From assembly GCA_029838195.1 (NCBI GenBank), contig JALGVJ010000021.1, forward strand, positions 1 to 63,556: a stretch of 63,556 nt of DNA, given 5' to 3'. Source of the DNA: Promethearchaeota archaeon (GTDB lineage Archaea; Asgardarchaeota; Lokiarchaeia; Sigyniarchaeales; SOKP01). This document shows, one piece after another, positions 4,401-17,657 of this stretch; the stretch's first letter is position 1, and each line of letters opens with the position of its first letter. The notes below the pieces were generated by a model, which saw only the letters and a list, made by a program, of their open reading frames with translations, did no database searches and was not told the DNA's origin. Made by a program: the position numbers and the translations under genes.

Positions 4401-7166
4401 CTATTCTATAATAGTCAGCTCTTCTTTATCTTTAGGACTTTTTGCCTTCTCTAAAAAGTAAGGATCGATTATCCGTTCGATTTCTTTAATATCATGATGC
4501 CGTGGAACTATGGCTTTTAATCGACAAGTTGCTGCACATCGTCCGCAACCACGGCAGATCGCAGGATTTATATACGCTTTTTTGGTAGGTATGCTCACAT
4601 CTTCATATTCTTGTCTGATATCCACGAGAGAAATTGCTTCAAAAACACAAACTTCGGCACAATTTCCACATCCATTACATTTATCGAGGTTTACTTCTAC
4701 ATCTTTAAAGAAACATTCGATAGAGAGGAGAAAAGAGAGGATTTCCAATCTCGTGGCCGAAATTTCTTTCATAGTTAAAAATCTACTGGCTCTACCCGCT
4801 GCGGCGTTCGCCTCTATTATGGAATCTTGAACATTTTTGGGCCACTGAGCGCAGCCACACACGAAAATACCTTCCGTAACAAAGTCTAGAGGTCTTAATT
4901 TTTCATGAGCTTCTACGAAAAATCCATACTCATCGATTGGAATTTTTAACATGGAAGCAAGTTCATGAACTTCTTGTCGAGGGATCAAGGGTGTTGAGAG
5001 AATGATTAAATCCGTTTTAATATGGATGCTCTTCGTAGGATCTTGATAATCTTGTAAGGTAATTTCGTATTTTTCAGGATCTTTATTGATTTTCTTAATG
5101 CGAGGAATGTTTTCTAAATCATATTTTAAGTAAGTGGCAAATTTCTTTCTCTTGGAAGCAAATTTTTCAAATTCTTTTTTCGCCACGTGAAGTTCTCTAA
5201 TTAAAACAAGAACGTCTAAGCCGGGTTTTAATTCTTTCAAAATATTAATGTTTTTAATAGTATTGCTACAACAAATATTAGAACAATAAGAATATCCTCC
5301 TCTCTGTCTTGCATTAACGCACATGATAAATGTAACATTATGAATGTTATCTAACCATGAAACATCTTGCTTTTTTAATAATTTCTCTAATTCCATGTGA
5401 GTAAGAATGTTATTATTTAATTCACTATATTGAAAGAGCCCATGAGGCTTGAATTCTTGAGCACCTATGGCCACTATAATAACGCCAACTTTTATTTCTT
5501 GGTACCGGCCATCAGAACTTATTATAGAAACATCATAATTTCCAATGGACCCCTTAATCCTTTCAATTTTTGATTTTAAAAAGATATGGATCTTCTCATT
5601 AGCCTTAATTTCTGTCATTGTTTTTTCTAATAAAAGGGATGCCTTTTCCTGTATGGGATAAAGAACATTCACGTGATTAAGATTTCCCCCTAATCTACCT
5701 TCTTTTTCAATAACATACGTTTTAAATCCTTGATTTGCAATGTTTAAAGCTGCCGTCATTCCCGATATTCCTCCTCCGATTATTAAGGCTACTGGATGAA
5801 CTCGAATGATTTCTCTTTCCGATAAAATGTCTATTTCTCTATCCCGCGTTAAAGAATGCCTTTTTGCTCGTAACATGGTCGCTACTTGAGAAGCTACGCC
5901 ACTTGCATCAGCGACGGTTTCGGAAATATTCATGGGGCCATGACAAAATCCGCATAAAAACACTCCTTCACGTGTCGATAAGGACTTATTAAAATAAGAT
6001 TTTTCCTTAAAAAAGCCAAATTGATCTAACTCCACCCCCATGATTTTCGCTAACTCTTTAGTACCCCTTGAAGGAACGAGAGGCGCAGCTAAGACTGCCA
6101 AATTTGCTCTAAATACTTTATTTTTATCATTAGTTTTTAAATCATCATAATAAATTAAAATATCATTCGTTTCCGGGTCTTCTTTTAATTCGTGAACTTT
6201 GGAAAAATAATAGTGAATTCCATGTTGTTTTTCAGCCTCTTTAGTGAATTCATAAAAATTTTTTCCAAATACCCGAATATTATGCCGAAATATCGCAATC
6301 TGGGCATCATTAATATAATTTTTAGCTAAAATTCCATTTTTAGTGGTGTACATACAACAAACGCGTGAACAATAAGGTGTTTCCCGTTTTGAATACCCCG
6401 AACTCGCACAATGAATAAAAGCGATTGTCTTCGGTTCTTTTTCGTCACTCGGGCGTAATATTTGTGCCCCGAAAGGACCCGTAGGACAAGAAATGCGTTC
6501 AAATTCCAACGCATTGACAACATTCTTGTATTGATATCCCCACGTAGGTGCCAATTCTTCACCTAACATGTCAAATCCCGTAGATAAAATAATTACTCCT
6601 ATTTGTAAGGTGAGCTGCTCGGGTTTTTGATCATAATCAATAGCTCCCGCTTTACATACTTTTGAACAAACTCCACACACTCCACGTTGCATATACAAAC
6701 ATAAATTAGAATCTATTAAATATATCGGGGGAATTGCTTGAGGAAAAGGAATGTAAATGGACTTTCGCTTCCCTAAATTCATGTCAAATAAATTGGGTGT
6801 TTCTACTTTTGGACATTTTTTAGCGCAATCTCCGCATGCCCGACATTTTGTCTCATCCACATACCTAGGGTTTTTTTCAAGCGTGACTGTAAAATTCCCT
6901 GCTTTTCCTTTAACTTTTTTTACTTCGGTCAAGGTATATAATATAATATTAGGATTTTTATACACGGCAACCATCTTAGGAATGAGAGAACATAAAGAAC
7001 ATGACATGTCAGGAAATAATTTATCTAATTGTGCCATTCTACCGCCAATTGAAGGAGATTTTTCCACCAAATAGACTTTAAACCCCAGTTCCGTTAGATC
7101 CAAGGAAGCTTGGATTCCCGCAATTCCAGCACCCACCACTAAAACTGATCCAATGGTATCTTTCAT
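4401..7166 (-). CDS. hdrA: HdrA-like flavoprotein with two FAD domains, divergent paralog (921 aa)
   Basis: Two GxGxxG motifs (GAGIAG, GGGISG), GGRMAQLDK, YCSRVCCMY, several CxxCxxCxxxC ferredoxin motifs, EAHEKLRPLD. Confidence 0.9.
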   Translation of the reverse strand: MKDTIGSVLVVGAGIAGIQASLDLTELGFKVYLVEKSPSIGGRMAQLDKLFPDMSCSLCSLIPKMVAVYKNPNIILYTLTEVKKVKGKAGNFTVTLEKNPRYVDETKCRACGDCAKKCPKVETPNLFDMNLGKRKSIYIPFPQAIPPIYLIDSNLCLYMQRGVCGVCSKVCKAGAIDYDQKPEQLTLQIGVIILSTGFDMLGEELAPTWGYQYKNVVNALEFERISCPTGPFGAQILRPSDEKEPKTIAFIHCASSGYSKRETPYCSRVCCMYTTKNGILAKNYINDAQIAIFRHNIRVFGKNFYEFTKEAEKQHGIHYYFSKVHELKEDPETNDILIYYDDLKTNDKNKVFRANLAVLAAPLVPSRGTKELAKIMGVELDQFGFFKEKSYFNKSLSTREGVFLCGFCHGPMNISETVADASGVASQVATMLRAKRHSLTRDREIDILSEREIIRVHPVALIIGGGISGMTAALNIANQGFKTYVIEKEGRLGGNLNHVNVLYPIQEKASLLLEKTMTEIKANEKIHIFLKSKIERIKGSIGNYDVSIISSDGRYQEIKVGVIIVAIGAQEFKPHGLFQYSELNNNILTHMELEKLLKKQDVSWLDNIHNVTFIMCVNARQRGGYSYCSNICCSNTIKNINILKELKPGLDVLVLIRELHVAKKEFEKFASKRKKFATYLKYDLENIPRIKKINKDPEKYEITLQDYQDPTKSIHIKTDLIILSTPLIPRQEVHELASMLKIPIDEYGFFVEAHEKLRPLDFVTEGIFVCGCAQWPKNVQDSIIEANAAAGRASRFLTMKEISATRLEILSFLLSIECFFKDVEVNLDKCNGCGNCAEVCVFEAISLVDIRQEYEDVSIPTKKAYINPAICRGCGRCAATCRLKAIVPRHHDIKEIERIIDPYFLEKAKSPKDKEELTIIE

Positions 7167-7614: not shown

Positions 7615-8052
7615 TTAAAGTTTTTTGAGAGGGCCTAATTCTTTTATCTGATTCGTAAATTCCGTTATTAAATCCGCAAACTTTTTTCCTTCTGAAGCAC
7701 TAACCCATTCCAGTCTTACTCGCCTACCATCAATTCCTAATTGCTTTATAACAATTTCATGTACTTTTTTAAAGCGCTCACGAGTATATTCATTTCCCGA
7801 GATATAATGACAATCGCCAATATGACAGCCCGTTACGAGAACACCATCTGCCCCCTCCTTTAATGCTTTTAAAATAAAGGAAGGATCTACTCTTCCCGAG
7901 CACATTACTCGAATGATTCTCATGTTAGGAGGATATTGGAACCGTGAGACGCCCGCCAAATCAGCTCCAGCATAGGAACACCAATTGCAACAAAACACTA
8001 AGATTTCTGGGTTAAACTGCGCTTTATTTTCTTTTATTTTTGATCTTGACAT
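7615..8052 (-). CDS. mvhD: MvhD [2Fe-2S] subunit, Cys-encoded
   Basis: FCCNWCSYAGADLAG, RVMCSGRVDP, GCHIGDCHY, WVSASEG. Confidence 0.95.
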   Translation of the reverse strand: MSRSKIKENKAQFNPEILVFCCNWCSYAGADLAGVSRFQYPPNMRIIRVMCSGRVDPSFILKALKEGADGVLVTGCHIGDCHYISGNEYTRERFKKVHEIVIKQLGIDGRRVRLEWVSASEGKKFADLITEFTNQIKELGPLKKL

Positions 8053-8081: not shown

Positions 8082-11000
8082 TTATTCTTCTAATAAATAG
8101 GCTTCAATCATCTCATAGATCTGGTCAAAATCGTAATGCTTGACCGAGATTGCTCCGTTTGGGCAAGTTGCTGCGCAAGTTCCGCATCCCTTGCACAGTG
8201 CTGAGTTGATAAAGGATTTTTTTAATATGAGACTTAAATCCTCGAATTCCATGGAAGCTTCTTTAATTTCAATTGCATTATAAGGACAGACGGATTTGCA
8301 TTTTCCGCAACCCACGCATCGCTCGAGGATTACTTCTGCGATTAGCCCCGAGGTTTTAATGGTTTTTGCACTCAAGAATCTACTTGCTCTTCCGGCAGCA
8401 CCATTGGCTTGAGCAATGGTATCTTGAATATTTTTTGGCCATTGAGCGCAACCAGCAAGGAAAATTCCATCAGTAGCAAAATCAAGAGGTCTTAATTTTA
8501 CATGGGCTTCCAAGAAAAATCCATTTTTATCGAGCGGGACTTTTAACATCTTTGCTAGCTCCGTCAAATTATCTGCTGGAATCATGGGTGTTGAGAGGAT
8601 GATGGCATCCGTTTCAAACTCAATTTGATCGTGTAAGTTTACGTCCCGCACTTTAATTTTATATTTTTCTCCTTTTCCTTTTAATTTAGAAATAATAGGC
8701 ATGTTATCCAAGTCATATTTCAAGAACATGGCCTCTTTTCTCCGTTCACGATAATACTCTTCAAATTCTTTTTTAGCCATCTGAATGTCCCGATAGAGCA
8801 CTACAATTTCGAGGTCAGGTTTTAATTGTTTAAGAATTGCGATATTTTTCATGGCTATCCCGCAACAAATATTTGAACAGTAAGTAATACCTTTCGGTTG
8901 TCGGGCATTAACGCAAAGTACCATAGTAATGCGTTTTAATTTCTCTAACCACGATGAGGCATCGTTCTTTAATTTTTGTTCCAATTCTAATTGAGTGAGA
9001 ACATTTTTATTTTTTGAAGCATATTGAAAGAGTCCTTCGGGTTTTAGCTCTTGGGCCCCCGTTGCTACGATGATTGTTCCAATTAACATTTTTTGAACCT
9101 TGTTCTTTGAGTCCTCAATGGAAACCTCATAATTTCCAATATATCCTTTAATATCTTTAATCTTGGATTTGAGTAAAAGCGTGATATTCTTATTTGTTTT
9201 CACTTTCTTGATGGTTTCCTCAAGAATTTTCGAAGCATCTTGATGATTTGGATACAAAACATGAAGATGTTTCAAATTTCCCCCTAACTCCTTTTCTTTT
9301 TCCACGAGAAATGCTTGAAATCCTTGATTGGCAATGTTCAAGGCTGCGGTCATCCCGGCGATGCCTCCACCAATTACCAGCGCAGTCGGGGATATGTCTA
9401 ATTTTTCTTCTTTCAAGGGTTTTAGCAAGCGTGCTTTCGCGACCGCCATTCGGATCAAATCCTTGGCTTTTTCCGTGGCGGCTTCATTATCTCCCATGTG
9501 AACCCAAGAACATTGATCCCGAATATTCACCATTTCAAACAAGTATTTATTCAAGCCCGCTTCTTGACATGTCTCTTGAAATAGCGTTTCATGAGTCCTC
9601 GGCGTGCAGGAGGCTACAATGAATCGATTTAAATTATATTCATGGATCATTTCTTTAATCCTCGCCTGCGAATCACTGGAACAACTATATAAATTCGCCT
9701 CGCAATGAACCACTCCCGGTAGCTTGCTTACATACTCCACCACGCTCGATACATCAACGTATTTCCCAATGTTTATCCCACAATGGCACACTAATACACC
9801 AATACGGGGAGGATCCGTGATCTTCACCTCTATCTCGGGGACTTCAATAGTTTTTTCCTTGATGTTAGAATTTTTAACGGAATTTAATAAATTTGCCACT
9901 TGGGCGGCTACTCCACTGGCATCAGCAACGGTTTCGGGAATATCCATCGGCCCCTGACAAAAACCACATAAAAAGATGCCTTCGCGGCTCGATAAGAATT
10001 TATCAAAATAAGAACGCTCTTGGAAGAAGCGATATTTATCTAATTGAATGCCTAAAATCTCAGCTAATTCTTCAATTCCCCTCGGAGGAACTAAAGGCGT
10101 CGCTAATACAACCAAATTTGCTACAAACGCTTTAAATTCCCCCGTTTTCAAATCCTCATAATGAATTATTAAATCTTTTGTTTCCGGAACCTCTTCAATC
10201 TTGCTTATTTTAGTATTATAATATTGTACCCCATATTCTTCTTGAGCCCGCTGCGTGAATTCATAAAAATTCTTACCATAAGCCCTGATGTCGTGCCGGA
10301 ATACGTGACATTTAGACTTTTCCGAATGCTCCTTCGTTATGATCGCTTCTTTAGCCGTGTACATGCAGCAGACCGAGGAACAATAAGGAATGTTCTCATG
10401 TAAATCTCGAGAACCCGCACATTGAATGAAAGCTATGTTTTCGGGCTCATCATGATCGCTTGGCCTAAGCACGTGCCCTCCAAATGGACCCGAAGCACAT
10501 AAAATTCGCTCGTATTCCAAGGCCGTGACGACATTTTGAAATTTATAACCCCATCGAGATGATAATTCCTCGGAAAGCATTTCAAATCCGGTGGCTACAA
10601 CAATGGCACCCACTTTAATTTCGATTTCTTCCGGCTTTTGCTCATAATCTATGGCTTCCGCCTTGCAAACTTTTTGACAGACGCCACACACGTTTTTTGT
10701 CAATTTCAAGCAAATTTCAGGATCTATGAGATATACAGGAGGGACTGCTTGAGGAAAAGGAATATAAATGGACTTTCGCTTCCCTAAATTCATGTCAAAA
10801 GCGTTAGGTACCTCTATCTTTGGACACTTTGCCGCGCAATCCCCGCACCCCTTACATTTTTTCTCATCAACATATCGTGGTTTTTTAAGTACGGCTACAG
10901 TAAAGTCTCCTGCTTTTCCCTCAACTTTTTTTACCTCATGATAAGTCATGAGCTCAATATTGGGATTTCGGTAAACTTCTACCATTTTAGGGGCAAGAAT

Positions 11001-11168
11001 GCATAATGAGCAATCGTTTGTCGGAAACGTCTTGTCCAATTGTGCCATGCGACCCCCAATAGACGGGCTTTTTTCGACGAGGTAAACCTTAAAGCCTAAT
11101 TCCGTCAAGTCAAGAGAGGCTTGAATTCCCGCAATTCCCCCTCCAATTACCAATACACTTCCTTCCAT
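8082..11168 (-). CDS. hdrA: Large HdrA-like protein with two FAD modules (1028 aa), Cys-encoded
   Basis: GGGIAG x2, LDKTFPTNDCSLC, CHCGINI, ASCTPRTHE, NIRDQCSWVH, ferredoxin motifs, EAHVKLRPLD. Confidence 0.95.
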   Translation of the reverse strand: MEGSVLVIGGGIAGIQASLDLTELGFKVYLVEKSPSIGGRMAQLDKTFPTNDCSLCILAPKMVEVYRNPNIELMTYHEVKKVEGKAGDFTVAVLKKPRYVDEKKCKGCGDCAAKCPKIEVPNAFDMNLGKRKSIYIPFPQAVPPVYLIDPEICLKLTKNVCGVCQKVCKAEAIDYEQKPEEIEIKVGAIVVATGFEMLSEELSSRWGYKFQNVVTALEYERILCASGPFGGHVLRPSDHDEPENIAFIQCAGSRDLHENIPYCSSVCCMYTAKEAIITKEHSEKSKCHVFRHDIRAYGKNFYEFTQRAQEEYGVQYYNTKISKIEEVPETKDLIIHYEDLKTGEFKAFVANLVVLATPLVPPRGIEELAEILGIQLDKYRFFQERSYFDKFLSSREGIFLCGFCQGPMDIPETVADASGVAAQVANLLNSVKNSNIKEKTIEVPEIEVKITDPPRIGVLVCHCGINIGKYVDVSSVVEYVSKLPGVVHCEANLYSCSSDSQARIKEMIHEYNLNRFIVASCTPRTHETLFQETCQEAGLNKYLFEMVNIRDQCSWVHMGDNEAATEKAKDLIRMAVAKARLLKPLKEEKLDISPTALVIGGGIAGMTAALNIANQGFQAFLVEKEKELGGNLKHLHVLYPNHQDASKILEETIKKVKTNKNITLLLKSKIKDIKGYIGNYEVSIEDSKNKVQKMLIGTIIVATGAQELKPEGLFQYASKNKNVLTQLELEQKLKNDASSWLEKLKRITMVLCVNARQPKGITYCSNICCGIAMKNIAILKQLKPDLEIVVLYRDIQMAKKEFEEYYRERRKEAMFLKYDLDNMPIISKLKGKGEKYKIKVRDVNLHDQIEFETDAIILSTPMIPADNLTELAKMLKVPLDKNGFFLEAHVKLRPLDFATDGIFLAGCAQWPKNIQDTIAQANGAAGRASRFLSAKTIKTSGLIAEVILERCVGCGKCKSVCPYNAIEIKEASMEFEDLSLILKKSFINSALCKGCGTCAATCPNGAISVKHYDFDQIYEMIEAYLLEE

Positions 11169-11188: not shown

Positions 11189-12433
11189 TTATTTTTCAAT
11201 TTCCACGTGATTTATTAAAAATTCAGAAAAATCTTTTATTTCAAGAGATTGTAAACTTTCAAAATCATCTCGCAAGCAATTAAGATGGATATTACATTTA
11301 GGGCAAGAGGTTACGAGAATTTCTCCCGCATTCTTGGCTTCTAACATCCGTTTATATCGAAGTGCTTTGGATTTTTCATTACAGTTTAACCAGCAACTAA
11401 CCCCACAGCATAGGGAATTTGCTTTATTATGTTCCATTTCATGAAATTCATATCCTAAATTTTTAAATTCTCCAAATATTTCTCGGACTTGTTCCGTTAT
11501 CATGTTTTCTTTAGGTAAAAACCTGCTAAGCCTACACGGATCATGATATGTAAAAGGAATAACTTTGTTTTCCTCAATTGGTTGCTTGAATTTTATCTTT
11601 CCGGCTTTCCAGTTTTCATATAAATATTCAATTAAATGCTTGACTTCAAATTTTTGATTAAAATCTTCAAACAATTGAGCATAATCGATTTTTAATGTTC
11701 TGTAACATTCTGCGCATGCCGTAATTATTAATCGCACGCTTGCGCGTTCAAACATTTCTAAATTTCTTCGGGCTAATTTAATAAACGTTTTTAATTTTCC
11801 TTGCCCCCAATAAATGTCATGACCACAGCAAATCTCGTCCTTGAATACCACGATGGGCTGGTCTTCAATTTGACAGAGCAATTTTAACGTGGAGGTGGCG
11901 ATGGAATCCTTATTGTCAAATTCATAATTGAAAAAGGAAAGGCATCCCACGAAATACAAGATCTCGCCTTTATCTGCAATTTTACATTCTTTAGGAACCC
12001 ATTCCATAGATCTGGCTGGTTGGATGTAGGGACGTGCCATAATTTCCGTGATGGTCGTGTAGATGCTCTTATGGGCCACGATCTCTTCTGGTTTTTGATT
12101 ATACTCGTGACGCATTTTGTAACGTGCCATGCGCACGAGATCCGCAAAATTTATATTTTCCGGGCAGTCTTTCAGGCATTGATTACAAGTAAGACAATCC
12201 CACAACACGCCGCTTTCGAGAACTTTATCTTCAAATCCTTCTAAAATCATTTGGATAATCCGACTGGGCGTAAACTTTTCTACTTTGCTTAATTGGCACA
12301 CTCCAGAACAGCGGGCGCATTGATAGCACTTTTCCAAGAGTTCTCTTAAATCGGACGTGTAAATTTTATCCAAATATTCAAATGCATCCTTAAATAATTT
12401 TTTACGTTCGATTTCTCGTTTTGATTCGGAAAT
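11189..12433 (-). CDS. HdrD-like (HdrC ferredoxin + two CCG domains) Fe-S oxidoreductase; start is either ATT at 12433 or TTG at 12373
   Basis: CYQCARCSGVC, CLTCNQCLKDCP, CCGH, ACAEC, YHDPCRL, CCG, SCPKC; frame open upstream of the TTG up to the previous gene's stop. Confidence 0.85.
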   Translation of the reverse strand: MSESKREIERKKLFKDAFEYLDKIYTSDLRELLEKCYQCARCSGVCQLSKVEKFTPSRIIQMILEGFEDKVLESGVLWDCLTCNQCLKDCPENINFADLVRMARYKMRHEYNQKPEEIVAHKSIYTTITEIMARPYIQPARSMEWVPKECKIADKGEILYFVGCLSFFNYEFDNKDSIATSTLKLLCQIEDQPIVVFKDEICCGHDIYWGQGKLKTFIKLARRNLEMFERASVRLIITACAECYRTLKIDYAQLFEDFNQKFEVKHLIEYLYENWKAGKIKFKQPIEENKVIPFTYHDPCRLSRFLPKENMITEQVREIFGEFKNLGYEFHEMEHNKANSLCCGVSCWLNCNEKSKALRYKRMLEAKNAGEILVTSCPKCNIHLNCLRDDFESLQSLEIKDFSEFLINHVEIEK

Positions 12434-12454: not shown

Positions 12455-13564
12455 TTAAGTTAGATTTTTCATAAATTCGATTTTTCGTTTATTTTTGGAA
12501 ATAGAAAAATGGGTGATTAATTCAATCATTTTTTTCTTCTTTTCTTCACTCAAATCGGCACATCTTATAATGCCGGCGTCAATTGCTTCCTTGAAAATTT
12601 TTTTCCCTTTTTCTGTTCTCACGAGCACGGTTGTATATTTATCAGGGGAACCTAATCCTCCGAAAGAAAGGTCCGCATAGATATTGGTGAAATCATTGCA
12701 TGCATGACAAGCGGCTCGCATGTACTTATCTAAATGATTAAAAGGGATGTGAATGATTTTTTCTCGTCCCTCTTCACTCTTCAATTTAAAGATAACATCT
12801 TCCTTGATGTTTATTTTTTCTATATCTGCAAGTTTAATGTTATAATCATTTTCAAACTTCTGAAGTTGAGATTTATCAAAAAAGAAATTTTCATAACAAA
12901 ATAATCCCAAACAAATTTCTATATTTTCCGAGGGCGTGACTCCTAATTCTTGCATGCATTTAATCGTATAGATTTGACAAGGAGTTCCCACTACGGCTAA
13001 TTTCTTGAATTTATAATGATTTAATTTCGGAATGGAATGCGTGTAGGTGGAAAATTTTTGAATCTCATCCAAGTGGGATGCTATTTCTAATTTTGTCCCA
13101 GAAGCTTGGAGTAGATCATGCTTGCTATCTGCAAAAGTAGCCTCCCGGGAAAAGGCAGTATCCATTTTCGATACAATTGCTCCATCAATTTGCTTCCTTT
13201 CAATTAAAAAATTAATCAAGGAATTCACGACGCCCCCATCCGTCCCCTTATCTAAGAATGCTCTATCAGTGGCTTGACAGGAATAAATTTCTTGAAAGGG
13301 ACCTATGGGCATGGTGGTAAAATCTGAAAAATGATATTTCTTCCTTAGTTCCTCATCCAAAGCATGGGTCTGCGGACATAATAAATAACATATTCCGCAT
13401 TCAAGACAAGCATCTTTATTGATATATAGAGGTGGCGAATAAGGATCTTTAAAACCGATAACATGATATTCTGCTGAGCTACAAAAGCTCGTGCAACCAC
13501 CACATTCTTGGCATATCCCTTTTTCATGAACCTCTTTAATGAGATCTTCAAATGTTTTCGTCAT
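12455..13564 (-). CDS. FrhB/FdhB-family F420-binding flavoprotein with N-terminal ferredoxin
   Basis: CQECGGCTSFC, CLECGICYLLCP, TDGGVV, VVGTPCQ, GLFCYENF, CHACND, ADLSFGGLGS. Confidence 0.9.
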   Translation of the reverse strand: MTKTFEDLIKEVHEKGICQECGGCTSFCSSAEYHVIGFKDPYSPPLYINKDACLECGICYLLCPQTHALDEELRKKYHFSDFTTMPIGPFQEIYSCQATDRAFLDKGTDGGVVNSLINFLIERKQIDGAIVSKMDTAFSREATFADSKHDLLQASGTKLEIASHLDEIQKFSTYTHSIPKLNHYKFKKLAVVGTPCQIYTIKCMQELGVTPSENIEICLGLFCYENFFFDKSQLQKFENDYNIKLADIEKINIKEDVIFKLKSEEGREKIIHIPFNHLDKYMRAACHACNDFTNIYADLSFGGLGSPDKYTTVLVRTEKGKKIFKEAIDAGIIRCADLSEEKKKKMIELITHFSISKNKRKIEFMKNLT

Positions 13565-13594: not shown

Positions 13595-15094
13595 TTATTT
13601 GGAAGGAGCTAATTGTACGGGTTTACATTTTGTTCTTTTGGTGCTTGCGATTTTTTCCACGAGGAATTGCCCAGGCTTGACTTCAGCTAAATTTTTAGCC
13701 TCAATTAATCCCGCTTTTATAGCTCCTTTAAAAACTTTTAAGGCAGCCTCTGACCTGATAACCACGGAGGAAAAACCAGCCTGAGACCCGATAGATCCAA
13801 CGGAAATATCTGCATAATCGGATGTTAAATCTTCGCAATAATGGCACGTATCACGGGCGTACGATTGTACTTCTTTTAAGGGAACAGCTAATTCTTCGCC
13901 ACTTTTTAAATTAATGATGAATTTCCCCTTATCTATATTCATCTTAGTCAACTCGTTGATGTCTTTTTCGAATTTTTCTTTTATAAGCTTTTTCGTGTTT
14001 TCATAGGAAAACGATTCCATACAGAAAAGTCCAATGGTATATTTAATGTTTTTTAAGAACGAAAATCCGTTTAAAAATAAAGATGCTTTATAGATTGCCT
14101 TCATCATGCAAGGCACGCCCACCACGGCGATTCTCGGATATTCTCTTGCTTTATCAATGATAGTCAAGGAAGGGGAATTCGCATATTTGGTGCCTGCCGT
14201 CTTGTATAAATCTTTCACTTCAGTCACGATCACGGGTTCAGGTTTCCATGGCTCTTTCGAATGCCGAACAGCAATAATTGCATCTACCAGATCATTTTCC
14301 AAGAGATATTGGAGCAGCGTGGTGACGATTCCGCCATCTTGCCTCACTTTCTTGATTTCTTCTACCTTGGTGCTGGCAGTGTAAGTCTCAATGTATCCTC
14401 CCATTTTTTCTGAAAACTTCAATTTTTTATCTAATTTCTTTATTGCATTATACACTTGCTCGATGGAAAACGAGCGCGGACAGGTGGAAAAACAAAGCCC
14501 GCACTTGATACACGTCTTTTCGTCAATCTCAAGCGTGTCGGCCGTGACCGTGATGGCATCCAAAGGGCAAATCGAAGAGCAACAGCCGCAATTACAGCAT
14601 GCGCCCGATTCATACACGATGGAAACAGGTTCGAAGAAGTGTTCTTTAAAATCTTCTGGTAGGGTTTTAGCTTGATATCGGTAAAAATATTCTTTTACTT
14701 CGACTTCTTTTTCTTCTCCCTTAATTTTTTTGATTTCTGTATGGGTCTTGACTTCCACGAGTTCGTCCACGTATCCTTGTTCCTTCAAGTAGATGACATC
14801 TCGAATGACGTTTTCGGGGGGAAAGTTTTGGATTAACGCTGCAATTTCCTCCAAGAATAAGGGTTCTTGTCCGATTAGTCGATTTAAGACGATTTTTCGT
14901 TCGGTTTCTGCATCGATCATGGCATCTAAGATTTCATAGAATTCTTCTTCAGAGAATTTTCCATGCTTTAGGATATCTTCTTTTGCCTCAAAAAATGCCC
15001 GTATTTGAAAATTTTCAATAGCTTTATAGGTGGCTTCCATTATTTCGGCGGGAGAGCTTGAATTAAATTCCACATTCTTTACGGTTTGTACCAT
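13595..15094 (-). CDS. FrhB-family F420-binding flavoprotein with N-terminal helical/winged-helix extension and ferredoxin
   Basis: CCNCGCCSSICP, CIKCGLCFSTCP, QDGGIV, VGVPC, GLFCMESF, CHYCED, ADISVGSIGS; ~150 aa extra N-terminus. Confidence 0.9.
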   Translation of the reverse strand: MVQTVKNVEFNSSSPAEIMEATYKAIENFQIRAFFEAKEDILKHGKFSEEEFYEILDAMIDAETERKIVLNRLIGQEPLFLEEIAALIQNFPPENVIRDVIYLKEQGYVDELVEVKTHTEIKKIKGEEKEVEVKEYFYRYQAKTLPEDFKEHFFEPVSIVYESGACCNCGCCSSICPLDAITVTADTLEIDEKTCIKCGLCFSTCPRSFSIEQVYNAIKKLDKKLKFSEKMGGYIETYTASTKVEEIKKVRQDGGIVTTLLQYLLENDLVDAIIAVRHSKEPWKPEPVIVTEVKDLYKTAGTKYANSPSLTIIDKAREYPRIAVVGVPCMMKAIYKASLFLNGFSFLKNIKYTIGLFCMESFSYENTKKLIKEKFEKDINELTKMNIDKGKFIINLKSGEELAVPLKEVQSYARDTCHYCEDLTSDYADISVGSIGSQAGFSSVVIRSEAALKVFKGAIKAGLIEAKNLAEVKPGQFLVEKIASTKRTKCKPVQLAPSK

Positions 15095-15163: not shown

Positions 15164-15235
15164 TAACCCCAACCCTCGCACGAGTGAATCTTCTTGTAAC
15201 TATAATTTCCTTACAAGAATCATTTTCCGGGGTTA
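15164..15235 (-). promoter_or_regulatory. Eukaryote-type SECIS element (selenocysteine insertion sequence)
   Basis: Minus strand reads ATGA-TTCTTGTAA-GGAAATTATAG-TTACAAGAA-GA (15223..15189): AUGA/GA core, perfect 9-bp helix, AAA-containing loop; lower helix TAACCCC (15235..15229) pairs with GGGGTTA (15170..15164); lies directly 3' of genes with in-frame TGA. Confidence 0.85.
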
Positions 15236-15702
15236 ATTAGAATTTCGGCTTTCTCTCGAGCAGATTTGGCTTTCTCTCGAACAGATTTGGCTTCCACTTG
15301 TTTAAGGGGATTCACTCCCATGCGTTTCACCTTTTCGTAAGTATCTTCTACACTCTTCACGAATTTCTCGCTTTCTGCGCTACTTAACCAGTACATATTG
15401 ATCCGTTGATCGCCAAAACCACGCTTGCTCAAGATTCTATTGGCAAAATCGACATGTTTCTGGGCAGTAAAATTGCCAAGCTTGAATTGACATTCGTTTG
15501 GGCGTCATCCTACCACCATTACACCGTCCGCACCCGATTTAATGGCAAATAGGAGGTGCCGCACGTCAAGCCTGCCCGTGCATCGAATTTTTATGATTTT
15601 TACGGAACTGGTATACTTAAAGCGAGATACGCCTGCCAAATCCGCCGCCCCATACCCTCATTTTACACAGCAAAATGCGATTATATCGAATTTTTCGTCC
15701 AT
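15220..15702 (-). CDS. mvhD: Selenoprotein MvhD/VhuD, 160 aa, Sec15 and Sec66
   Basis: ATG at 15702; in-frame TGA at 15660..15658 (FCCVK-U-GYGAADLAG) and 15507..15505 (GVMVVG-U-RPNEC), both aligning to Cys of the 7615-8052 paralog; frame continues into track ORF 15220..15432. Confidence 0.93.
15247..15293. repeat. 21-bp tandem repeat (2.2 copies) in the mvhD 3' end
   Basis: ggctttctctcgagcagattt / ggctttctctcgaacagattt / ggctt, encoding AKSVREK-AKSAREK. Confidence 0.9.
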
Positions 15703-15707
15703 CTTGT

Positions 15708-17657
15708 TTAACCTCCCTCGAGTAATCCTTTAATTTCCGCAAAAATTTGATGATCTCTATAGTAACGTATGTCGATTGCTTGCGTGGGACAGCATGCGCT
15801 GCAAATTCCGCATCCATCGCAATCTACTTCAGAAACTTGAGCCGCTTTATTATCGACCACTTTTATAGCTCCTTTTGGGCATTCTCTCTCGCATCTTCCG
15901 CACGCAATGCATAAATCTTCATTTATTTCCGCAGTGATCATTTCCAAGTCAATAACTCCTGGTGCAGTTAGTTCTGCCACTTTACTCGCTGCAGCTCGAG
16001 CTTGAGAGACTGCATATGCGATATCTTTAGGCCCTTGAACAAACCCTGCAATAAAAATTCCTTTTGTCTTGGTCTCTTGCGGCATGAGTCCAAAATGCGA
16101 TTCTGTTAAAAATCCATTCGTGTCCATATCCAAGTTTAATACCTTGGCAATCTGCTCCGTTCCCTTCGATGGTAATGCCGCCGTCGACAACACCACGAGG
16201 TCCGCATCAATATTGATGATTTCATCCGTTAAAGACGAATATACCCGAACCTTCACGTTTTTCGTCTCCGGATCTTCTCTTACTTCCCCTACCTTACCCC
16301 GTATCATCCGAATACCCGTCTCTTTCGTTTTCTGATAATATTCCTCAAATCCTTTCTCATTGGTCCGCATGTCTATGTAGCAGATGGTGATGTTCGCATC
16401 AGGAAATTCGTCTTTCAAGAGCTTGGCATTCTTTAATGCCAACATGCAGCAGACCGCACTGCAATACGTTCTTTCGGTGTCTCTCGACCCCACGCATTGA
16501 ATGAATACTATTTCGTTCAATTTTTTATCGTCAGATATGCGATGTACGTGCCCTCCGAGAGGACCGTTAGGGGCAAGCATACGCTCTAATTGGGCTTGCG
16601 TGATAACATTATCATATTCTCCATATCCATATTCTCCAAACGGTTCGTAAATGTCCCACCCCGTCGCAATGATGATGGTACCTACCTTGAATTCTATTTC
16701 TTTTGGTGTCTGACTGAAATCGATGGCTTTTAACTCGCATGCATCTACGCATGAAAAACATTCAACACAATAGTTCCTCTGAATATCATATAAGAAGGGA
16801 ACCGCTTGACCAAAGGAAATATCGATTGCCTTGCGAGCTCCTAAATTTTCATCGAAGAAATTTGTTGTATAAACAGGACAGACCTCTGAACAGGCTCCAC
16901 AGCCGTTACATTTCTCGGGATCGATATATCGGGGTTTCATTTCCACGGTAACATCATAATTGCCCACGTAACCCTCGACGTGTTTCACTTCACTATAGCT
17001 AAAGATATTTATATTGGGATTACGATTCACTTCGAGCATTTTTGGGCCACAAATTCAAATTGCGCAGTCATCTGTTGGGAACGTGCGGTCGAGTTGTGCC
17101 ATTCTTCCTCCGATCGTCGTTCTTTTTTCGACTAGATAGACCTTGATCCCTTCATTTGCGAGATCCAAGGCGGCGTTCATTCCAGCAATACCTCCCCCCA
17201 CAATCAGAGTCGCTTTCTCGACCGGAAAAGTTTGTACGGGAACTTCTTCTAACCGCCGTGCCCTTTCAAGTCCCGCATTTACAAGAATTTTGGCTTTTTC
17301 AAGGGCTTCTTCATTATCTTGGGTGACCCAAGAATCGTGTTCTCGCACGTTGACCATCTGAAAATAATAAGGATTAAGCCCAGCTTTCGCAATGGAACCA
17401 CGATAAATGGGTTCGTGTGTCCTAGGGGTTCAAGCAGAAGCGACAATGCGGGTTAATTTCTTTTCTTTGATATCATCCATGATTTCATTTTGACCGCTTT
17501 CAGTACAGAGAAATGGATGCGTTTTAGCGACAACCACATCATCGAATTTCTTGGCAAATTCTACAAGTTTGTCACAGTCGATTTTTCCACGGATATTAAT
17601 GCCTCACTGGCACGCATAATAGCCGATTCTATTCCGTTGCTGGTTATTGTTTTCCAT
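15708..17657 (-). CDS. hdrA: Selenoprotein heterodisulfide reductase subunit A, 649 aa, Sec18, Sec76, Sec201
   Basis: ATG at 17657; one frame to TAA at 15710..15708 broken only by TGA at 17606..17604 (YACQ-U-GINI), 17432..17430 (ASA-U-TPRTHE) and 17057..17055 (TDDCAI-U-ICGPKM); joins track ORFs 17055..17357 and 15708..17039. Confidence 0.95.

Follow-up and report, generated by a model that had tools for sequence, protein, structure and literature searches.

Five in-frame UGA codons in an adjacent hdrA-mvhD gene pair of a Promethearchaeota genome are very probably read as selenocysteine (Sec) through a single SECIS that lies after mvhD and is shared across the boundary between the two genes. 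The pair lies in a stretch of 63,556 nucleotides that we analyzed as a whole (the window), and its features are collected in the table. A sequence-only reading of the window had proposed both the recoding and the shared element. The recoding is backed by the Sec machinery of the host genome, the invariance of the TGA codons among relatives and the residues seen at three of the positions in a solved homologue. The sharing of the SECIS is backed by the absence of a second element and by a comparison of stop codons.

Table. Features of the hdrA-mvhD locus and the genes downstream of it (window coordinates; Sec assignments and RNA structures are predictions).
Feature	Position	Strand	Description	Basis
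hdrA	15708..17657	-	heterodisulfide reductase A-type FAD/Fe-S protein, 649 aa, three Sec; ATG 17657, TAA 15710-15708	Pfam and NCBIfam
TGA = Sec18 in hdrA	17604..17606	-	YACQUGI, CxU, N-terminal Fe-S domain	
TGA = Sec76 in hdrA	17430..17432	-	ASAUTP, N-terminal Fe-S domain	
TGA = Sec201 in hdrA	17055..17057	-	DCAIUIC, CxxU	
hdrA-mvhD junction	15703..15716	-	GGAGG-like ribosome site in last hdrA codons, TAA, 5-nt gap	
mvhD/vhuD	15220..15702	-	FlpD family, 160 aa, two Sec; ATG 15702, terminal TGA 15222-15220	Pfam and NCBIfam
TGA = Sec15 in mvhD	15658..15660	-	CCVKUGY; X in PDB 9SFI chain K	
TGA = Sec66 in mvhD	15505..15507	-	VVGURP, GCH-motif position; X in PDB 9SFI chain K	
21-bp tandem repeat, 2.4 copies	15242..15293		lengthens variable C-terminal tail of mvhD	
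Whole SECIS element, three-way junction	15164..15235	-		fold prediction and alignment
Closing helix, 5' strand	15229..15235	-	within mvhD coding sequence; pairs with 15170-15164	
lokiSECIS core hairpin	15189..15223	-	AUGA (its UGA = mvhD stop), 9-bp stem, 11-nt loop, GA	
Side hairpin (third arm)	15172..15185	-	YGCRA-type loop	
FrhB/FdhB-like F420-binding subunit	13595..15094	-	first gene downstream of SECIS, no Sec	
Second FrhB/FdhB-like gene	12455..13564	-	no Sec	
CCG-domain Fe-S protein (HdrD/GlpC-like)	11189..12373	-	no Sec	
Double-HdrA fusion, Cys-only	8082..11168	-	1028 aa	
mvhD paralog, Cys-only	7615..8052	-	closes cluster	

The sequence-only reading described two frames, 5 nt apart, that are interrupted only by TGA, three times in hdrA and twice in mvhD. 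The spacing is confirmed; in orthologues, the aligned start gap between hdrA and vhuD is 4-26 nt on the same strand. All five inner TGAs are there as well, but mvhD contains a further in-frame TGA at codon 161, the UGA of the SECIS core, where read-through would add only U-F-L. Cys paralogs are present both in the window (among them the double-HdrA at 11168-8082 and the mvhD at 8052-7615) and in the rest of the genome. In alignments to them, each inner TGA falls on a Cys position, as had been claimed. The naive chance of all five doing so is approximately 1e-7. The 21-bp repeat in the mvhD tail is absent from orthologues, and the variable tail runs into the SECIS closing helix.

The orthologous pair was found in 14 relatives (counts of 15 include the window), and a scan of genome contigs yielded only two true orthologues. 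Conservation in relatives had been suggested as a check on the recoding. Wherever an orthologous locus includes one of the five codons, that codon is TGA (13/13, 14/14, 15/15, 15/15, and 15/15, window included). One could suppose that these TGAs are the stops of a pseudogene or errors of assembly, as the host genome is a MAG (4.5 Mb, 33% GC, 96.6% complete) with 7.9% estimated contamination. However, 14 independent assemblies with protein identities of 58-82% have TGA at these very codons, all five fall at Cys positions, and both the Sec machinery and a SECIS are present. Because the five TGAs are invariant across orthologous loci, they do not represent assembly errors or decay, and we give such an origin practically no credence. 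The HdrA family does move between three and four Sec, with TGA as the codon for Cys51 in 4 of 14 loci and for Cys300 in 2 of 15. Three of the five sites also have a structural counterpart. In the solved homologue PDB 9SFI, HdrA 197 and the two MvhD positions are X (Sec), matching U201, U15, and U66, and the structure paper on Methanococcus maripaludis HdrA names Sec197 (PMC13518236).

Homologues of the cluster proteins at 90% identity or more are from Promethearchaeota, and the host class is Lokiarchaeia/Promethearchaeia, as for the known Loki HdrA-VhuD pairs. The presence of Sec machinery in this genome had been named as a check, and the components are there. A search of the genome places SepSecS (E 1e-116) on contig C3, which also carries SelB (above its cut-off) and tRNA-Sec (53.9 bits, exceeding the Rfam threshold), and a Sec-containing SelD (over cut-off) lies on contig C86. 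PSTK is probably present, judging from a full-length match on contig C42 (E 1e-44) that falls below the curated cut-off. Within the window itself, an Rfam scan gave zero matches and ARAGORN zero tRNAs.

Could UGA instead be generally reassigned in this organism, to Trp or Cys, or be read via bacterial-type hairpins beside each codon? TGA makes up 27% of long-ORF stops in the host genome (626/2295), and the genes of the downstream cluster have no internal TGA, some of them ending in TGA, all of which speaks against general reassignment. As for local hairpins, structure after the UGAs is not conserved: no conserved hairpin of the kind expected of a bacterial SECIS follows any of the five (mean z -0.06 to +0.5). 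We found nothing in favor of either version, and both are, in our estimation, nearly impossible, leaving Sec as the very likely reading of the five codons. Both genes need re-annotation as intact selenoproteins.

A SECIS-like hairpin had been noticed after mvhD, about 2.4 kb from the first UGA; measured from that UGA to the AUGA, the distance is 2383 nt. The sole strict match to the published lokiSECIS pattern in the window is at 15223-15189. Its 11-nt loop carries AAA and ends in AG, followed by GA, matching the published definition. Full-featured matches to the pattern number four in the genome and zero in two shuffled genomes. Across 13 aligned orthologues, the upper stem of the core is 94% paired, with two-sided changes at five pairs, and the Methanococcales GAA/A internal loop flanked by G-C clamps was not seen in the predicted folds. 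The sequence-only reading placed one 3' SECIS after mvhD. The element does lie after the Sec codons of mvhD, but it overlaps the end of the coding sequence and so is not in a separate 3' UTR. In two orthologous elements, both on the minus strand (L054:8399-8499 and L055:8608-8708), the upper region is much longer than the 9-bp/11-nt model, and HdrA of these two loci has Sec also at the ferredoxin ligand position 300.

If the UGA of the core were a sixth Sec codon, mvhD would end in a U-F-L tail like that of thioredoxin reductase, and UGA-x-L-TAA is indeed found in 4 of 15 loci (the window, L043, L050, and L051). The TAA that follows merely belongs to the SECIS stem, however. Read-through lengths vary among the orthologues, a ribosome at this UGA unfolds the SECIS, and the use of AUGA as a stop is already in print (Mariotti et al. 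2016, PMC4989117). Because 7 of 15 orthologues stop at TAA or TAG just before the AUGA, the codon is best read as a stop. A sixth Sec is therefore very improbable, and the TGA at 15222-15220 is almost certainly the true end of mvhD, as far as sequence comparison can tell.

Further SECIS elements were sought by pattern and by covariance model, as the sequence-only reading had advised, and only one element was found in the window. The covariance model was built from 13 aligned orthologous SECIS, so its match to the window is a self-match by construction. It finds one element per orthologous cluster and recovers held-out paralog elements at 21-67 bits. With this model, which is family-specific and would miss other builds (the selD element scored only 12 bits), neither the two genes nor the region upstream gave a match above background. 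Three further Sec hdrA-mvhD pairs in the genome, one on contig C84 and two on C1, are organized alike: hdrA ends in TAA and one SECIS follows mvhD, 2.2-2.4 kb from the first UGA. In the SECIS of one of these pairs (C1 91363 (+), L059), AUGC...AA replaces AUGA...GA, and its mvhD has one Sec.

These searches bear on the possibility that the UGAs encode Sec but that hdrA relies on a separate, undetected element of another structural type, located in its coding region or 5' UTR, and that the 3' SECIS serves only mvhD. In favor of this, Methanococcus fdhA has a 5' SECIS (PMC11881835), the 614 nt upstream of hdrA are AT-rich, and the covariance model detects the lokiSECIS type only. Yet no lokiSECIS is found upstream of or inside hdrA, and the gene is without local hairpins or synonymous-site constraint; synonymous conservation rises at the mvhD junction only (codons 631-648), with no peak elsewhere in hdrA. 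In nine cases where a Sec-hdrA stands alone in relatives, a lokiSECIS or SECIS-like hairpin lies directly behind it, and when a Sec-mvhD follows, the elements found sit behind mvhD, with none at the junction. A dedicated hdrA element thus seems unlikely to us, and a single shared element remains our reading of the locus.

If the SECIS reaches hdrA, the distant hdrA stop cannot be UGA. To compare stops, we took the 3' ends of hdrA from relatives (40 Sec and 40 Cys paralogs). When Sec-hdrA is followed by Sec-mvhD, the stop is TGA in 0 of 31 cases, as well as in 0 of 15 orthologues and 0 of 3 paralogs from the same genome. By comparison, TGA ends 5 of 18 Cys-hdrA followed by Cys-mvhD (Fisher p 0.0045 against the 31 tandem Sec genes) and 5 of 9 stand-alone Sec-hdrA with no mvhD following (p 0.0002), though we split the genes by following mvhD only once the data had been seen, and related genomes are not independent samples, so both p-values overstate significance. 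When the downstream gene is ignored, the pooled Sec and Cys groups do not differ (5/40 versus 6/39, p 0.76).

Elements and stops also overlap in the stand-alone genes. Of the nine, six have full AUGA elements by model or pattern and three have stop-overlapping cores identified by pattern or eye; in four of nine, the UGA of the core doubles as the hdrA stop. Among the fetched Cys paralogs, no SECIS was found after hdrA. In the orthologue set, window included, hdrA ends in TAA in 15 of 15 loci, while mvhD ends in TGA in 8 of 15. One observation counts against reading these stops as a mark of the shared SECIS: frhB1, a neighbor without Sec, is also TGA-ended in 0 of 15 orthologues. Action of the SECIS in both directions was considered on this basis and rejected, as TGA does terminate other downstream genes and related loci do not count as independent evidence. 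Overall, the stop pattern is as predicted by a shared element with a minimal-distance rule, with the SECIS placed after whichever Sec gene comes last in the unit. The stand-alone loci (L094, L095, L101, L110, L113, and L120-L123) have no mvhD in the sequence retrieved behind hdrA and have their own SECIS or SECIS-like hairpin. They contradict the published claim that hdrA and vhuD always co-occur (Mariotti 2016, Huang 2024).

We propose that hdrA and mvhD would be carried on one transcript. Sec-tRNA would be made by the PSTK/SepSecS route with selenophosphate from SelD, and SelB/EFSec, recruited at the single SECIS, would deliver it, probably through a binding protein; we know of no lokiSECIS-binding protein. 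The Sec-tRNA could then reach any UGA on the same mRNA beyond a minimal distance upstream, across the cistron boundary. UGAs at or beside the SECIS would terminate, and the hdrA stop, far upstream yet within range, could not be UGA. The expected products are an electron-bifurcating HdrA and an MvhD adaptor, probably working with the FrhB-like subunits encoded just downstream.

The SECIS appears to be larger than its core. RNAalifold predicts the core, the closing helix, and the side hairpin, and both extra helices contain two-sided changes. Side hairpins average -3.6 kcal/mol versus -1.0 in shuffles (0/200), native flanks pair better than flanks swapped among paralogs (-8.2 versus -4.4), and the side stem has at least 4 bp in 23 of 24 further elements. 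The available texts of Mariotti 2016 and Huang 2024, figures aside, do not contain this third arm. In another study, a Loki vhuU SECIS failed to function when tested with a reporter in M. maripaludis (PMC11881835). Its listed fold energy, -6.9 kcal/mol, is like that of our core-only hairpins (-6.9 and -7.6) and unlike that of the whole elements (-20.4 and -21.7), so the element in the reporter may have been truncated. Tentatively, and with more doubt than conviction, we consider that the Asgard SECIS is a three-way, k-junction-like structure whose YGCRA side hairpin is needed for recoding, and that it lies within a polycistronic mRNA spanning as many as seven genes, where it affects only the cistrons upstream of it. 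If this is true, a retest with the full element could make the Asgard SECIS reader tractable, and the boundaries of the three-armed element are useful for reporter building.

Other SECIS-like elements in the genome were noted in passing. A three-armed SECIS near C34 12266 (-) (L067) lies behind an ORF of approximately 150 codons with two adjacent UGAs in PGC-U-U-EK. Elements at C7 32150 (+) and C38 69225 (+) have nearly identical upper stems and lie behind small ORFs with one in-frame UGA each (TSM-U-TM and TRS-U-SR), apparently outside the five common Asgard families. At C19 29954 (-) (L061), a canonical three-armed SECIS follows, at a distance of about 30 nt, a short hydrophobic ORF that ends in S-U-P-G-stop and is a possible target. 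A small vhuU-like gene (FDC-U-LSC) at C35 169262 (-) (L068) uses the AUGA of a three-armed element as its stop. The hairpin after selD (C86 near 5000-5060, L062:1480-1580) keeps the closing helix and a GCAA side loop, and its core is apparently UUGA, not AUGA. A further covariance-model match, at 31 bits, is located at C39 9895-9981 (-) (L069).

The sequence-only reading called the unit bicistronic. The hdrA-mvhD pair stands, but five co-oriented genes that are conserved in relatives follow the SECIS, with gaps of 20-125 nt and without internal TGA. Because the SECIS lies between mvhD and these genes, the unit may extend beyond the pair and, from the layout, the SECIS may be intercistronic. 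As far as the contigs extend, orthologous loci keep the downstream gene order, apart from one with an insertion ahead of the final gene. In 13 of 13 loci checked, the SECIS is followed by an A-rich spacer, which includes a T5 run in the window; two SECIS flanks elsewhere in the genome are T-rich. A sigma-70 scan, which is ill-suited to archaea, returned 13 promoter-like matches versus 8.8 in shuffled sequence and 2 terminator-like matches versus 2.9. In the 1028-aa double-HdrA, the first half keeps the CxxC pair without the N-terminal domain and the second half is the reverse, a layout that resembles ANME fusions (PMC9012536). Another double-HdrA of 921 aa at 4401-7166 (-) lacks the N-terminal Fe-S domain entirely.

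U66 occupies a [2Fe-2S] ligand position of MvhD. U201 corresponds to Sec197 of M. maripaludis HdrA and to Cys205 of Methanothermobacter marburgensis HdrA, and MvhD U15 corresponds to Cys16 of M. marburgensis MvhD. Cys205 and Cys16 are extra cysteines between the MvhD [2Fe-2S] cluster and FAD (PMC13580544). The HdrA N-terminal domain, which binds an Fe-S cluster (PMC9012536), has four conserved cysteines (16, 18, 51, and 76), and two of these places are taken by U18 and U76; by position, they are likely ligands of this cluster. All five Sec sites fall in the mobile arm or its relay, a placement suggesting that selenium tunes electron entry and exit at the bifurcating flavin. The Sec sites map onto electron-relay cysteines with a role left open in the 2026 structures (PMC13580544, PMC13518236).

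The novelty implied for this arrangement did not survive a look at the literature. Mariotti et al. 2016 (PMC4989117) states the same model almost verbatim, and Huang et al. 2024 (PMC11227280) repeats it. In the earlier study, a single lokiSECIS located behind vhuD serves both genes of the Loki pair, which are most likely transcribed as one polycistronic mRNA with up to six UGAs over about 2 kb, and hdrA always ends in UAA or UAG while AUGA can serve as a stop (PMC4989117). Huang, Xiao and Zhang describe hdrA-frhD pairs with a type I eSECIS-like element across hundreds of Asgard genomes (PMC11227280). Our locus shares with the Loki pairs of PMC4989117 the gene order, the very short gap, a multi-Sec HdrA with a site near 200, a two-Sec VhuD, and a single AUGA/9-bp/11-nt/GA element after vhuD, with a span of about 2 kb. 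An hdrA stop other than UGA and an AUGA that can act as a stop are likewise common to both. It is a real example of an arrangement in print since 2016, with nothing different in kind. Relative to the available text of Mariotti 2016, the closing helix, the side hairpin, and the conserved seven-gene cluster are extra here. Huang 2024 reports no highly conserved internal-loop or lower-stem nucleotides, and the side hairpin goes unmentioned in its available text (PMC11227280). We also add a stop-codon control for the shared-signal model that compares tandem, stand-alone, and Cys hdrA. On function, Mariotti 2016 did not regard the Sec sites as cluster ligands, whereas later structural reviews assign the N-terminal domain cysteines, together with Cys197, to an Fe-S cluster (PMC9012536).

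Methanococcales (PDB 9SFI; the M. maripaludis Hdr-Vhu-Fwd complex, PMC13518236) also have Sec197 in HdrA and Sec at the two VhuD sites. They differ in having one HdrA Sec rather than three, a GAA/A-type archaeal SECIS, and a methanogenic context; the neighbors here are a pair of FrhB-like genes, an HdrD-like gene, and a double-HdrA fusion. With eukaryotic SECIS (form I) and the multi-Sec SelenoP, our element has in common the AUGA...GA core, apical adenines, action from a distant 3' position, and a minimal-distance rule. Unlike eukaryotic SECIS, it has a shorter stem and a third arm and would act across a cistron boundary, and SBP2 is not reported in archaea. The shared-SECIS arrangement matters for the origin of eukaryotic Sec decoding.
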